A DNA stretch of 64,000 bases, taken from the NCBI RefSeq assembly GCF_030013205.1, contig NZ_CP122648.1; one strand, 5' to 3'. The first letter of the stretch is position 1. The number at the start of each line of letters is the position of its first letter. The position numbers were made by a program, and so were the translations under genes. The notes beneath the pieces were generated by a model that was not told where the DNA came from, ran no database searches, and saw only the letters and a list, made by a program, of their open reading frames with translations. Positions 58,110 to 64,000 of the stretch are shown piece after piece. This stretch comes from Escherichia coli (lineage in GTDB: Bacteria > Pseudomonadota > Gammaproteobacteria > Enterobacterales > Enterobacteriaceae).

Positions 58110-58140
58110 CGCACAGAATGTGATGTCAGCACTCTGTGCG
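58110..58140. terminator. hairpin between convergent eamA and the GntR gene
   Basis: cgcacaga-(15 nt)-tctgtgcg perfect 8-bp stem, flanked by T/A runs. Confidence 0.45.
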
Positions 58141-58147
58141 TCTGCTT

Positions 58148-58846
58148 TTATCGCGGGAAAAAGTACTTTACCTGGAACTCGAAAATATTGCTGTAAAGTA
58201 ACGAATAATCCAGCGGAATAGAGTTACTGTCCACAGCCTGGGTCTGGATTTTAAGTATGGGATCCCGTGGGCTGATCCGTAAAATACTGGCGATTTCTGG
58301 GGTAGGAAAAGTAGGGGAGAAAGTTTCAAAGGTGCCAATGATTTTGATCCCGCATTCGTTCTCAATATACGAAAATTTGGATTTTTGCATATGTGCTACG
58401 GTTAAATCAGGAAAACGTGCCACTGACATCCACGTTTCTTCTAATTGTGCTGCATTATCCTCAATGAATCGCAGTCTCTTTATGTAATAAACCTGCTCAC
58501 CAGTCACTAAATTCAGCTCAGTCGCAATAGGGGGTGAAGCATCCTGCACTTCAAATTTCATAATCTGACTTCCTGCCTCCTTGCCGCTTTTATGCGCAAT
58601 TTCACTGAAGCTGTTCATGTGATCAATGTGTGCAACAAAATTCTTTTTTTGAATATATGTTCCTGAACCATGCTTTCTATGAATAATTCCTTCGCCTTCC
58701 AGCAAGGATAATGCCTTACGCAGGGTATTACGCGAAACATTATAACGAACAGCGAGTTCAGCTTCTGACGGCAACAAATCACCAACATGCCATGAATAGC
58801 CATTGATCTCGGATTTAAGTAAGCGGGCAATCTTTTGAAAAATCAC
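58148..58846 (-). CDS. GntR-family regulator with UTRA effector domain
   Basis: 232-aa ORF; N-terminal HTH (LPSEAELAVRYNVSRNTLRKALSLLEGEGII); divergent from the PTS genes. Confidence 0.8.
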   Translation of the reverse strand: MIFQKIARLLKSEINGYSWHVGDLLPSEAELAVRYNVSRNTLRKALSLLEGEGIIHRKHGSGTYIQKKNFVAHIDHMNSFSEIAHKSGKEAGSQIMKFEVQDASPPIATELNLVTGEQVYYIKRLRFIEDNAAQLEETWMSVARFPDLTVAHMQKSKFSYIENECGIKIIGTFETFSPTFPTPEIASILRISPRDPILKIQTQAVDSNSIPLDYSLLYSNIFEFQVKYFFPR

Positions 58847-59044
58847 TTTTGCACCTTTTAAGAGCCATTGAAAACAAGGAGTTGAGTCCTGATTGGTTTA
58901 TCGTATGGTCGAGTCGTTTAATTATCACCCTGATGTTGAACAACTTTAGTGCTGTATTACTGTGATCAATGTACCAGGACGTATAGCTACTGCGGGATAT
59001 GATATTTACACAATGTAATCTGTTATATACCAGTAAGGGAAAAT

Positions 59045-59356
59045 ATGAAAAAAATATTGTTAGTTTGCGCTGCGGGCATGTCAACCAGTATGCTGGTTAA
59101 ACGTATGATTGATCATGCTAACGCTATTTCACTTGAAGTTAATATTTCCGCATTGGCGATTGCAGAGGCTAAAGGGAAAATTAAAAATAACGAAGTTGAC
59201 GTTGTTTTACTTGGCCCGCAAGTTCGCTTTCAGAAACCAGAGATTGAAGCTGTTGCACAGGGGAAAATGCCTGTAGCTGTTATCGAGATGAAAGACTATG
59301 GCACCATGAACGGACAGGCAGTTCTTGAATTTGCGATGAAACTACTGCAAGAGTAA
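59045..59356 (+). CDS. PTS lactose/cellobiose-family EIIB
   Basis: 103-aa ORF MKKILLVCAAGMSTSMLV with phosphorylatable Cys in the CAAGMSTS loop. Confidence 0.9.
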   Translation: MKKILLVCAAGMSTSMLVKRMIDHANAISLEVNISALAIAEAKGKIKNNEVDVVLLGPQVRFQKPEIEAVAQGKMPVAVIEMKDYGTMNGQAVLEFAMKLLQE

Positions 59357-59470
59357 GAATCTAATATTATTAAACTATTACCTGAACTAACTTTTCACAC
59401 ATCATAAAATGGCTATGGCATACATGCTTTATTGGGATGTATAAATATCCAGAACAACAGGTATAAAAAA

Positions 59471-60793: not shown

Positions 60794-60814
60794 TCCCATT
60801 TACACAGGAAGGAG

Positions 60815-61132
60815 ATGTTGATGTTTGCAGATGAAGAACTTGTTATGGAGTTACTGATCAACGCGGGACAGGCACGTTCTGATGCGATGGAAGCCATACG
60901 TTGTGCCGGGCAAAAAGACTGGCAGGGCGCAACTCAGCTAATGGCCAGTTCGGAATTAGCCTGTCTTCAGGCACATAAGATTCAGACCGCGTTAATTAGT
61001 CAGGATGAAGGTTGTGGCAAAATAGAAGTTAATTTAATTCTGGTTCATGCACAGGATCATTTGATGAATGCAATATTATGCCAGGATTTAGCCAGGGAAA
61101 TTATTTCATTAAGAAAAGAGCTCCATGCCTGA
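60815..61132 (+). CDS. PTS lactose/cellobiose-family EIIA
   Basis: 105-aa helical ORF with conserved His (LILVHAQDHLMNA) typical of EIIA-Lac/Cel. Confidence 0.85.
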   Translation: MLMFADEELVMELLINAGQARSDAMEAIRCAGQKDWQGATQLMASSELACLQAHKIQTALISQDEGCGKIEVNLILVHAQDHLMNAILCQDLAREIISLRKELHA

Positions 61133-61187
61133 TTTTTTCCTCCAGTGCGATAGCTGGAGGAAATTATTACACTCTTAAGGATAAGTC

Positions 61188-62861
61188 ATGAATATAAAGA
61201 CGATTAACGTCAGCCTTTTGTCTTTTTCTATTATTACAGCATTGTTTCCGTTGAACGCGTTGGCAACAAAATTAACCATTGAGCAGCGCCTTGAACTGCT
61301 TGAAAATGAATTGTCGCAAAATAAACAAGAGCTGAGAGCAACACAGAATGAACTGGGGGTATATAAATCCCGACTTTCGACCTTTCAAAAAAGTATTACG
61401 GAAAATAAATACAAATCAGCCTCACTTGCTGAAATATCAGCGACATCTCCCGTCGCTGATAACATCAAAAATGAAAACGGTGAACAGAACTCGTCTGCCG
61501 CAGCGCATACTATAAATGGATCGCAGCAAGTTGCCGTTATTGAAAGTAAAGGCGACAAAACCACTATCGAAAGCGTGACCCTGAAAGATATCAGTAAATA
61601 TATAAAGGATGATATTGGGTTCAGCTATCAGGGGTACTTCCGCTCAGGCTGGGGTACCGGAAATCATGGCTCACCACAAACTTATGCAGCGGGTTCTCTG
61701 GGACGTTTTGGTAACGAGATGAGCGGTTGGTTTGACTTAACCTTAAATCAGCGTGTTTATAATCAGGACGGTAAAACGGCAAATGCGGTCGTTACCTATG
61801 ATGGCAACGTAGGTGAGCAGTATAACGATGCCTGGTTTGGTGACAGTGCCAATGAAAATATCATGCAGTTCAGTGATATTTATCTGACAACGCGAGGTTT
61901 TTTACCCTTCGCGCCAGAGGCAGACTTCTGGGTAGGCAAACATAAACTCCCGCAATATGAGATCCAAATGCTGGACTGGAAAACCTTAACCACGGATGTC
62001 GCTGCGGGTGTGGGGATTGAAAACTGGGCACTTGGTGTAGGGCTGTTTGATATGTCCTTAAGCCGTGATGATGTCGATGTTTACTCTCGTGATTTTACGC
62101 GTACCAGTCAGATGAATACCAATTCTGTGGATGTTCGTTATCGCAATATCCCGTTATGGGATGATGCAACATTATCATTAATGGCTAAATATTCCGCACC
62201 AAATAAAACGGATCAACAACAAGATAATGAAAATGACGACAGTTATTTTGAAATGAAAGATAGCTGGATGCTGACTTCTGTTTTACGGCAAAACCTGCAA
62301 CGCGATACGTTTAATGAATTTACGTTACAGGTTGCCAATAATTCCTATGCCAGCAGTTTTGCCAGTTTCTCAGATGCCAGTAACACGATGGCGCATGGTC
62401 GCTATTACTATGGTGACCATACCAATGGGATCGCCTGGCGTTTAATCTCTCAGGGCGAGATGTATCTTACTGACAATATTATTATGGCTAACGCGCTTGT
62501 CTATTCTCATGGCGAAGATGTTTATAGTTATGAAAGTGGCGCTCATAGTGATTTTGACAGTATTCGCACCGTAGTAAGACCGGCCTGGATCTGGAATACA
62601 TGGAATCAGACGGGGCTTGAATTAGGCTGGTTTAAGCAACAGAACAAAACACAGCAGGGTGTAACACTAAATGAATCGGCTTATAAAACGACACTCTGGC
62701 ATGCATTGAAAGTGGGTGAAAGCATTTTAGGTTCACGACCAGAAATTCGCTTCTATGGAACGTATATCAATATTCTGGATAACGAATTATCGAATTTTAA
62801 GTTTAATGAGAACAGCAAAGACGAGTTTATGGCCGGCATCCAGGCGGAAGTCTGGTGGTAA
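61188..62861 (+). CDS. carbohydrate-specific outer-membrane porin (LamB/BglH/ScrY family) with N-terminal coiled-coil extension
   Basis: 557-aa ORF; signal peptide; coiled-coil [37 protein letters not shown]; beta-barrel-like aromatic-rich remainder ending in W. Confidence 0.75.
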
Positions 62862-62885
62862 TCTATTTTAGTTAAGGAGTTGTGT

Positions 62886-64000
62886 ATGTCAGGATTTAAA
62901 AAAGGTTTTTTATGGGGCGGCGCGGTAGCCGCGCATCAGTTGGAAGGTGGCTGGAATGAAGGAGGAAAAGGCATCAGTATCGCTGATGTGATGACTGCTG
63001 GCGCTCACGGTGTGCCGCGTGAAGTGACAGAAGGCGTTATCGACGGACTTAATTATCCCAATCATGAAGCAATTGATTTTTATCATCGCTATAAAACAGA
63101 TATTCAGTTATTTGCCGAGATGGGATTCAAATGCTTTCGAACTTCCATTGCCTGGACACGAATCTTTCCGCAAGGTGACGAACAGGAGCCGAATGAAGAG
63201 GGTTTAAAATTTTATGATGATCTGTTCGATGAATGCCTGAAGCAGGGAATGGAACCTGTGGTGACGCTTTCGCATTTTGAGATGCCTTATCATCTGGTGA
63301 CAAAATATGGTGGCTGGCGAAACCGTAAACTGATCGACTTTTTCATCCGCTTCGCATCAACGGTCTTCACGCGCTATAAAGAAAAAGTAAAGTACTGGAT
63401 GACGTTTAACGAAATCAATAATCAGGTGAATTTCAGCGAAAGCCTGTGTCCATTTACTAATTCCGGTATCTTGTATTCGCCAGAGGAAGAAATCAATGAG
63501 CGCGAACAAATAATGTACCAGGCGGTACATTACGAGTTAGTTGCCAGTGCCCTGGCGGTACAGACTGGAAAATCGATCAATCCTGAATTTAATATCGGCT
63601 GCATGATCGCCATGTGCCCCATCTATCCTCTGACTTGTGCACCCAACGATATGATGATGGCCACGAAAGCGATGCATCGTCGTTACTGGTTTACTGATGT
63701 TCATGCGCGTGGATATTATCCGCAACATATGCTGAATTACTTTGCCAGGAAAGGATTCAACCTCGATATCACACCAGAAGATAATGCGATTCTTGCCAGA
63801 GGTTGTGTCGACTTTATCGGCTTTAGCTACTACATGTCTTTTACGACACAATTTTCGCCAGATAACCCGCAACTGGATTATGTTGAGCCACGAGATTTGG
63901 TCAGCAACCCTTATATCGATACATCCGAATGGGGATGGCAAATTGATCCGGCAGGGCTACGTTATTCACTCAACTGGTTCTGGGATCATTTCCAGTTGCC
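62886..64000 (+). CDS. GH1 6-phospho-beta-glucosidase (AscB/BglA-like), 3' end beyond window
   Basis: ATG at 62886 after AAGGAG; [22 protein letters not shown] and TFNEIN (catalytic acid/base NEP motif); manually translated, not in ORF track because it is incomplete. Confidence 0.85.

Follow-up and report, generated by a model that had tools for sequence, protein, structure and literature searches.

According to PMC4488073, bgc is one of four cryptic beta-glucoside operons in Escherichia coli, and bgl is described there as cryptic as well. PMC3585215 presents bgc as five genes, including those for the IIB, IIA and IIC components of a phosphotransferase system (PTS) and for the phospho-beta-glucosidase BgcA, and names the GntR-type protein BgcR as its positive regulator. 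In the same papers cellobiose, arbutin and salicin are reported as substrates, and the operon is reported to be cryptic on the sugars tested and active at low temperature (PMC3585215, PMC4488073). A six-gene set designated 'PTS system, cellobiose specific' (c1955-c1960) is furthermore known from strain CFT073, and was found in four uropathogenic E. coli genomes and in strains HS and SMS-3-5, but not in K-12, O157:H7, Shigella flexneri or S. dysenteriae (PMC2831201).

Here we analyse a stretch of 64,000 nt from E. coli (contig NZ_CP122648.1, assembly GCF_030013205.1), hereafter called the window, at the right-hand end of which a six-gene cluster encoding a PTS, a porin, a glycosidase and a regulator follows the core gene eamA. 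With a probability that we put at about 0.9, this region is the E. coli bgc (beta-glucoside/cellobiose) locus, in which bgcR is divergent from bgcE-bgcF-bgcI-bgcH-bgcA. The primary description of that locus (bgcR, bgcEFIHA) is the one by Neelakanta, Sankar and Schnetz in 2009 (Appl Environ Microbiol). Its abstract reportedly gives the porin BgcH as the product of the fifth gene, expression as dependent on CRP and the locus as occurring also in E. albertii, and its title stresses septicemic and uropathogenic strains. The c1955-c1960 genes of CFT073 are presumably bgc.

RESULTS

Gene content and identity of the cluster

A map of open reading frames (ORFs) was read over positions 55000-64000 of the window. 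All six genes of the cluster were found, intact and where an initial annotation of the window had located them, with the GH1 gene truncated by the window end. Pfam and curated protein models bore out the functions assigned in that annotation, i.e. a GntR/UTRA regulator, EIIB, EIIC and EIIA, a LamB-family porin and a GH1 enzyme. The region is organized as follows (source of each assignment in brackets):

57204-58103, plus strand: eamA, O-acetylserine/cysteine exporter, core gene forming the left flank (RefSeq annotation of the identical genome NZ_CP062203)
58104-58147: left junction spacer between the convergent eamA and bgcR, with a hairpin (ACGCACAGA...TCTGTGCGT, about 58109-58141) (junction comparison of K-12, CFT073 and O157:H7)
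58148-58846, minus strand: bgcR, divergent GntR-family regulator of the HutC subfamily (helix-turn-helix and UTRA), 232 aa (Pfam)
58847-59044: bgcR-bgcE divergent control region, AT-rich, GC content about 0.37-0.41 (sequence, repeats)
59045-59356, plus strand: bgcE, PTS EIIB of the lactose/cellobiose family, 103 aa (TIGR00853)
59471-60793, plus strand: bgcF, PTS EIIC permease of the lactose/cellobiose family, 440 aa from the annotated start (TIGR00410)
60821-61132, plus strand: bgcI, PTS EIIA of the lactose/cellobiose family, 103 aa (NF007768, TIGR00823)
61188-62861, plus strand: bgcH, outer-membrane sugar porin, 557 aa (Pfam LamB and Sugarporin_N)
61269-61397, plus strand: codons of the predicted periplasmic N-terminal coiled coil of BgcH, residues 28-70, six heptads (heptad analysis)
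62886-64000, plus strand: bgcA, GH1 6-phospho-beta-glucosidase, running off the window end; the full gene of 1,440 nt would end at 64325 (NF007154)

In CFT073 the same six genes occur in the same order and orientation and at the same site, between marB and eamA, with 96.5-98.1% nucleotide identity and 97-99% amino acid identity to the cluster in the window (98.7% for the regulator BgcR and 98.9% for BgcF). Three features by which bgc can be recognised were encountered. A gene for a GntR-type regulator (Pfam GntR and UTRA) lies beside the operon and diverges from the IIB gene; the operon consists of five genes for IIB, IIC, IIA, a porin and a phospho-beta-glucosidase, the porin being reportedly the fifth bgc gene; and the locus is the one occupied in uropathogenic/septicemic strains as represented by CFT073, whose gene tags we take to denote bgc. 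A literature search returned no other description of an island between eamA and marB. The cluster is an already known, real and intact operon and not a new one, and the initial annotation did not recognise the locus as the characterised bgc operon.

PTS components and phospho-beta-glucosidase

The permease BgcF scored 335.4 bits against TIGR00410 (cut-off 236), which places it in the lactose/cellobiose family (TC 4.A.3), and stayed under the cut-off of the cellobiose equivalog TIGR00359 (335 vs 434). BgcE matched TIGR00853 (E = 1e-24), and BgcI matched both NF007768 (E = 2e-30) and TIGR00823 (E = 1e-28). The motif VCAAGMSTS with Cys8 in BgcE and the motif VHAQDHLM in BgcI are both present and, by likeness to ChbB, ChbA and LacF, would be the phosphorylation sites. 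The 371 residues of BgcA encoded within the window reached 798 bits against NF007154 (6-phospho-beta-glucosidase; cut-off 624). In the full-length BgcA of NZ_CP062203, the acid/base motif NEIN (E176), the nucleophile motif IVENG and the phosphate-site motif KRYG are all intact. BgcA thus has what is expected of a GH1 6-phospho-beta-glucosidase: a sufficient model score, both catalytic glutamates and the motif that binds phosphate.

BgcH and its N-terminal coiled coil

BgcH is made up of a signal peptide (residues 1-26), a coiled coil (residues 28-70), a low-complexity linker (residues about 71-145) and a LamB-type barrel (residues 147-557). Pfam detected LamB (PF02264) at residues 147-557 (E = 1.2e-81) and Sugarporin_N (PF11471) at residues 30-56 (E = 2e-6). 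The coiled coil of about 45 residues that the initial annotation had noted at the N-terminus proved to be real: residues 28-70 follow a single heptad register in which 10 of the 13 a/d positions are hydrophobic, a level reached by 10 of 20,000 shuffled sequences, and the AlphaFold2 model has a helix at residues 31-72. In the barrel of the same model the predicted local distance difference test score (pLDDT) is 80-92.

The resemblance to ScrY suggested for the porin also held. A single-sequence phmmer search with BgcH against PDB sequences gave no match even at E = 10, and a profile of 20 sequences (BgcH and relatives) matched ScrY (1A0S) with E = 2.5e-8. Foldseek, run with the AlphaFold2 model, returned maltoporin (E = 4e-22, TM-score 0.74-0.76) and ScrY (TM-score 0.72). 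Barrel, fold and Sugarporin_N coiled coil place BgcH among the LamB/ScrY porins, its trimeric state being a prediction by analogy. PMC6173795, citing Dumas et al. 2000, reports that the coiled coil of ScrY forms a trimer and lends stability to the porin. The closest relative of BgcH is BglH of K-12, with 53% identity over the full length, the start of the coiled coil included. The coiled-coil segment is kept in all orthologues and BglH-like paralogues examined, and BglH and one Erwinia rhapontici paralogue show a gap of exactly 7 residues, i.e. one heptad, in the coiled coil compared to BgcH, which is consistent with selection keeping the heptad register. The coiled-coil extension is a known hallmark of the ScrY/BglH porin subgroup rather than a new feature.

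The initial annotation had taken a porin inside a PTS operon as a sign of an oligosaccharide substrate, a conclusion for which we found no support. The presence of the porin does not imply oligosaccharides because its nearest relatives have glycosides and a disaccharide as substrates: the operon of BglH is one for aryl-beta-glucosides, and ScrY serves sucrose. The substrates reported for bgc, namely the disaccharide cellobiose and the two aryl glucosides arbutin and salicin (PMC3585215, PMC4488073), likewise give no support to that conclusion.

The porin and the GH1 enzyme are grouped together in the protein collection, in a cluster of 14,022 members defined at 90% identity. The grouping is probably artefactual and could stem from ORFs that were fused or mis-called in some assemblies.

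Regulator and control region

Pfam detected GntR at residues 4-65 of BgcR (E = 1.4e-18) and UTRA at residues 87-218 (E = 9e-30), and BgcR has been reported to be similar to GmuR of the Bacillus subtilis glucomannan operon (PMC3585215). The AT-rich region between the divergent bgcR and bgcE genes is 198 bp long. It contains a CTGTGA motif (58959-58964) that is invariant in an alignment of 12 orthologous clusters ranging from Escherichia to Erwinia. Here a candidate CRP site, TGTGATCAATGTACCA, can be placed at 58961-58976, where CTGTGA/TGTGA fits a CRP half-site; the conserved TGTGA half-site would be compatible with control by CRP. The CRP pattern as such is not enriched in the window (26 matches vs 30 expected), and it is therefore the conservation across genera that argues for the site. 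A palindrome, CTGTTATATACCAG (59020-59033), is a candidate operator of the HutC type. On the operon strand, a scan for consensus promoters gave no hits beyond the chance level. Inside the island, no element was detected by either the Rfam or the tRNA scan, and a bgl-like antiterminator RNA in the island was rejected on account of the lack of any Rfam element.

Insertion site and boundaries

The checks proposed with the initial annotation that were run included a search for the far junction with a comparison to the eamA-marB region of K-12, and the assignment of the porin by hidden Markov models (LamB and Sugarporin_N, see above). From eamA to the window end (6.9 kb) the sequence is 100% identical to several complete genomes of pig enterotoxigenic E. 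coli (ETEC) and O139:H1 strains. NZ_CP062203 (strain K_EC180), which differs from the window by a single 1-nt indel over 15.9 kb, served as reference for the sequence past the window end. There, the GH1 gene is 1,440 nt long and is followed by 56 bp and then by marB, marA, marR and marC. Transferred to the numbering of the window, the GH1 gene of this identical genome ends at 64325 and marB starts at 64382. The far boundary of the cluster, correctly expected to lie outside the window, is the marB stop codon, about 380 bp past the window end.

In K-12, eamA and marB are directly adjacent, their stop codons being separated by 30 bp, which agrees with the initial annotation in its naming of marB as the K-12 neighbour. 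The insert of 6,278 bp takes the place of this 30-bp spacer. Island-specific sequence runs from just after the eamA stop codon to exactly the marB stop codon, with a hairpin at either end, and its GC content is 0.427 vs 0.467 for the whole window. The eamA gene of the window is 98.3% identical in nucleotide sequence to that of K-12. Annotation, junction comparison and a tRNA scan revealed no integrase, insertion sequence (IS) element, tRNA gene or direct repeat in the insert or at its junctions; that is, the marks of a mobile island (integrase or transposase, tRNA or att site, flanking direct repeats) are lacking. The spacer hairpin at 58109-58141 is a candidate terminator between eamA and bgcR; a scan for consensus terminators found none and did not list this hairpin.

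Two observations concern the genes around the insertion site. In K_EC180 (NZ_CP062203), the annotation marks a frameshift in marR, which lies outside the window at about 0.9 kb from the island, and if this frameshift is real, marRAB would be derepressed. In the O157:H7 strain Z885 the site is empty and has the same 30-bp hairpin spacer, and its eamA and marB are 88% and 90-91% identical, respectively, to those of K-12, CFT073 and the window strain, a divergence far above that usual within the species. About 374 records fall into the 80-90% identity band at eamA-marB. The sequence divergence suggests that the O157:H7 allele of eamA-marB may have been imported or may be very old.

Distribution in E. 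coli and other genera

An island-only query (5.9 kb) and a query spanning the empty K-12 junction were run on 5,426 complete E. coli genomes. The island was found in 2,562 genomes (about 47%). Its matches are 95-100% identical, the median number of places per genome is one, and in 2,496 carriers at least 80% of the queried 5.9 kb is covered. The empty K-12-type junction was contiguous in 2,855 genomes (53% being without the island). Of the 5,419 genomes that gave any match, all but two (5,417) belong to either the occupied or the empty set. K-12 and O157:H7 have the empty site. These counts agree with the accessory status proposed for the cluster in the initial annotation. Carriers were isolated from humans, pigs, poultry/chicken, cattle, dogs, rodents and the environment, and include strain SE11. 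Plasmid carriage was rejected, as the 'plasmid' matches are mislabelled chromosomes or chromosomal fragments. A 4.83-Mb record labelled 'DH5alpha' (NZ_CM135829.1) carries the island although K-12 is without it, and this strain label is probably wrong.

Other species were scanned with one genome per species. E. albertii has the full cluster adjoining marB-marA, i.e. at the same site, with 84-96% amino acid identity. In Citrobacter sp. On2M the full cluster lies at an unrelated core site, flanked by maeB/tktB and aegA/narQ, and in Salmonella enterica subsp. diarizonae at another unrelated site, next to pheP, esterase and nfsB-like genes; a complete cluster is present in Erwinia psidii as well. 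Rearranged versions were found in Kluyvera, Raoultella, Klebsiella, Enterobacter, Cedecea, Buttiauxella and Ewingella, several of them with the GH1 gene upstream on the opposite strand. In Enterobacter sp. Cy-643, the only locus examined for a kinase, the opposite-strand GH1 gene adjoins a gene for the beta-glucoside kinase BglK (582.7 bits, cut-off 550), a pairing that supports metabolism of beta-glucoside disaccharides. At several other rearranged loci with the GH1 gene upstream, tblastn found no IIA gene between the IIC and porin genes.

Age, selection and decay

Within E. coli, the synonymous divergence (dS) of the bgc genes is 0.08-0.13, compared to 0.10 for the flanking eamA. For the ratio of nonsynonymous to synonymous divergence (dN/dS), the bgc genes gave 0.05-0.11 in the comparison with CFT073, i.e. 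within E. coli, and 0.02-0.09 in that with E. albertii, which shows strong purifying selection on each of the six. Its low GC content and the different positions that it occupies in other genera suggest that the cassette is of horizontal origin. Within Escherichia, it is old, fixed at one site and kept by selection; that is, it is an old presence/absence polymorphism at eamA-marB and not a recently mobile island. The term 'island' used in the initial annotation stands in the sense of an accessory insert, but not in that of a mobile element, given the lack of an integrase, IS element, tRNA gene or direct repeat and a divergence equal to that of the flanks.

Independent IS insertions in the bgc locus of some strains are indicated by interrupted matches and by transposase annotations. 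The porin gene is split in two of the carriers, and IS600 is inserted in an O121:H19 strain. IS1 splits bgcR in one carrier, and IS1A goes along with partial loss of the cluster in another. In VCSW5, all that an internal deletion has left between eamA and marB is a piece of bgcR encoding part of UTRA, joined to the 3′ portion of the GH1 gene. This route of loss, as read from the remaining sequence, is different from the clean empty site of K-12.

Other features of the region

Upstream of eamA, the ORF map gave two further genes:

54485-55381: dgcZ
55822-57009, minus strand: ydeE

Just 3′ of dgcZ, a full-length match to the Rfam family STnc560 (an Hfq-binding small RNA; 280 bits) lies at 55393-55606 on the plus strand, in the region where the small RNA MgrR is annotated in K-12. 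At about 53500-53580, between dcp and ydeI, there is an 81-nt remnant annotated as 2-oxo-tetronate isomerase, where K-12 has ydeJ; gene content thus differs slightly from K-12 at a further point nearby.

DISCUSSION

Taken as bgc, the cluster would form the following pathway. Transcription would start in the AT-rich divergent region and would need cAMP-CRP and the GntR/HutC regulator BgcR; the dependence on BgcR and CRP and the low-temperature phenotype come from the literature. BgcH would pass beta-glucosides (cellobiose, or aryl-beta-glucosides such as arbutin and salicin) through the outer membrane and, by analogy with ScrY, its periplasmic coiled coil, if trimeric, would stabilise the trimer and lengthen the sugar path. 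The lactose/cellobiose-type PTS would then import the sugar and phosphorylate it at O6, by way of EIIA BgcI, EIIB BgcE and the permease EIIC BgcF, and BgcA would cleave the resulting 6-phospho-beta-glucoside into glucose-6-phosphate and glucose or an aglycone.

Several points weigh against this interpretation. The identification as bgc draws on papers citing the operon and on the CFT073 locus, with the porin BgcH as the reported product of the fifth gene and c1955-c1960 as the presumed bgc genes, and the names given to all six proteins in the public protein collection are generic, none containing 'Bgc'. The right half of the candidate CRP site is weak and not conserved across genera. In the AlphaFold2 monomer model, the helix of the coiled coil has a low pLDDT, as would be expected of a monomer model. 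Moreover, the operon is reported to be cryptic and to need a promoter mutation, and cellobiose, arbutin and salicin may therefore not be its natural substrates.

An explanation that we consider possible, if on balance unlikely, takes up this last point: the natural substrate of this PTS would be another or a larger compound, and its action on cellobiose, arbutin and salicin would be no more than a side activity. Candidates include cellodextrins, gentiobiose, sophorose, laminaribiose, beta-1,4 disaccharides derived from glucomannan, and plant glycosides met outside the host at low temperature, which comes close to the oligosaccharide idea of the initial annotation. Such a substrate would fit the dedicated LamB-type porin, the strong purifying selection on six genes kept in about 47% of E. 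coli genomes and in E. albertii, and the reports that the operon, cryptic on the sugars tested, is active when the temperature is low (PMC3585215, PMC4488073) and that BgcR is similar to GmuR (PMC3585215). However, the GH1 enzyme lies above curated cut-offs only for 6-phospho-beta-glucosidase models, the nearest porins, BglH and ScrY, serve glycosides and a disaccharide, and a related cluster comes with BglK, a kinase of beta-glucoside disaccharides. EIIC permeases of the lactose/cellobiose family (TC 4.A.3) are moreover known for disaccharides and glycosides, which also counts against a different or larger substrate.

Two other explanations concern the history of the cluster. That it should be a recently acquired, horizontally mobile genomic island of particular pathotypes is improbable, even though its GC content (0.427 vs 0.467 for the window), its lack in K-12 and O157:H7, its presence at unrelated sites in Citrobacter sp. 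On2M and Salmonella enterica subsp. diarizonae, and the emphasis that the title of the 2009 bgc paper places on septicemic and uropathogenic strains could all be read in this way. An integrase, transposase, tRNA gene and flanking direct repeat are lacking, the sole 'plasmid' matches are mislabelled chromosomes or chromosomal fragments, and in E. coli the cluster always has the same location (median of one location per genome), which it shares with E. albertii. Between phylogroups, dS is about 0.10 for the bgc genes and eamA alike, and the cluster occurs in isolates from pigs, chickens, cattle, humans, rodents and the environment, among the carriers being SE11 and, according to PMC2831201, HS. 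Recent mobility was rejected because there are no mobility genes or repeats and the divergence equals that of the flanks. It is highly improbable, finally, that the cluster is a decaying and functionless remnant, truly cryptic and on its way to loss. Its silence under laboratory conditions, as reported in PMC4488073, the IS1/IS600 insertions or internal deletion (VCSW5) in some strains, and its lack in 53% of genomes would suit a remnant, but the six ORFs are intact in the window, in CFT073 and in E. albertii with dN/dS values of 0.02-0.11, most carriers (2,496 of 2,562) retain 80% or more of the queried 5.9 kb, and the catalytic motifs are conserved.

We retain the identification of the cluster as bgc. 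As such, the result re-finds a published accessory sugar operon and adds little. What goes beyond re-identification is that about 47% of the complete E. coli genomes have the cassette, across many hosts and not just among extraintestinal pathogens, and that it is an old, site-fixed polymorphism common to E. coli and E. albertii, without mobility genes. Since the six genes are strongly selected although the operon is called cryptic, purifying selection raises a small question about the natural substrate and the inducing condition. One speculative and rather doubtful answer is that bgc, rather than being a cryptic system for cellobiose or aryl-glucosides, could be a selectively maintained one for another beta-glucoside, e.g. 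a plant/environmental glycoside or short cellodextrin used at low temperature outside the host, with the coiled coil of BgcH handing the sugar toward the PTS and with selection that depends on the niche having kept the polymorphism at roughly 50% in E. coli from a time before E. albertii split off.

Comparison with known systems

ScrY, the sucrose porin of the pUR400 scr regulon (PDB 1A0S, 1A0T, 1OH2), shares with BgcH an 18-strand LamB-type barrel and an N-terminal coiled coil of the Sugarporin_N type. However, the two proteins are only about 17-18% identical in the structural alignment, and ScrY has sucrose as its substrate and belongs to a different operon. The bglGFBH operon of K-12, for aryl-beta-glucosides, combines like bgc a beta-glucoside PTS, a phospho-beta-glucosidase and a LamB-type porin of its own. 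It differs in having a single glucose-family EIIBCA protein (BglF) and the antiterminator BglG, whereas bgc has separate IIB, IIC and IIA proteins of the lactose/cellobiose family and a GntR/HutC regulator, and the coiled coil of BglH is one heptad shorter than that of BgcH. The E. coli chitobiose/cellobiose PTS, chbBCARFG, belongs to the same PTS family as bgc and has likewise split IIB, IIC and IIA, but the Bgc proteins stay below the cut-offs of Chb-type models (278 bits for NF007634 and 105 bits for NF007768). In contrast to bgc, chb is regulated by the AraC-type protein ChbR, its phospho-glucosidase ChbF belongs to family GH4, and its operon does not include a porin gene. From bgc as found in CFT073 the window differs only in the allele: the allele group of the window (at least 99% identical) is found in 303 genomes, many of them from pigs (ETEC, O139:H1). 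The prevalence of bgc found here, 47% of complete genomes and many hosts, looks wider than the title of the 2009 paper implies.

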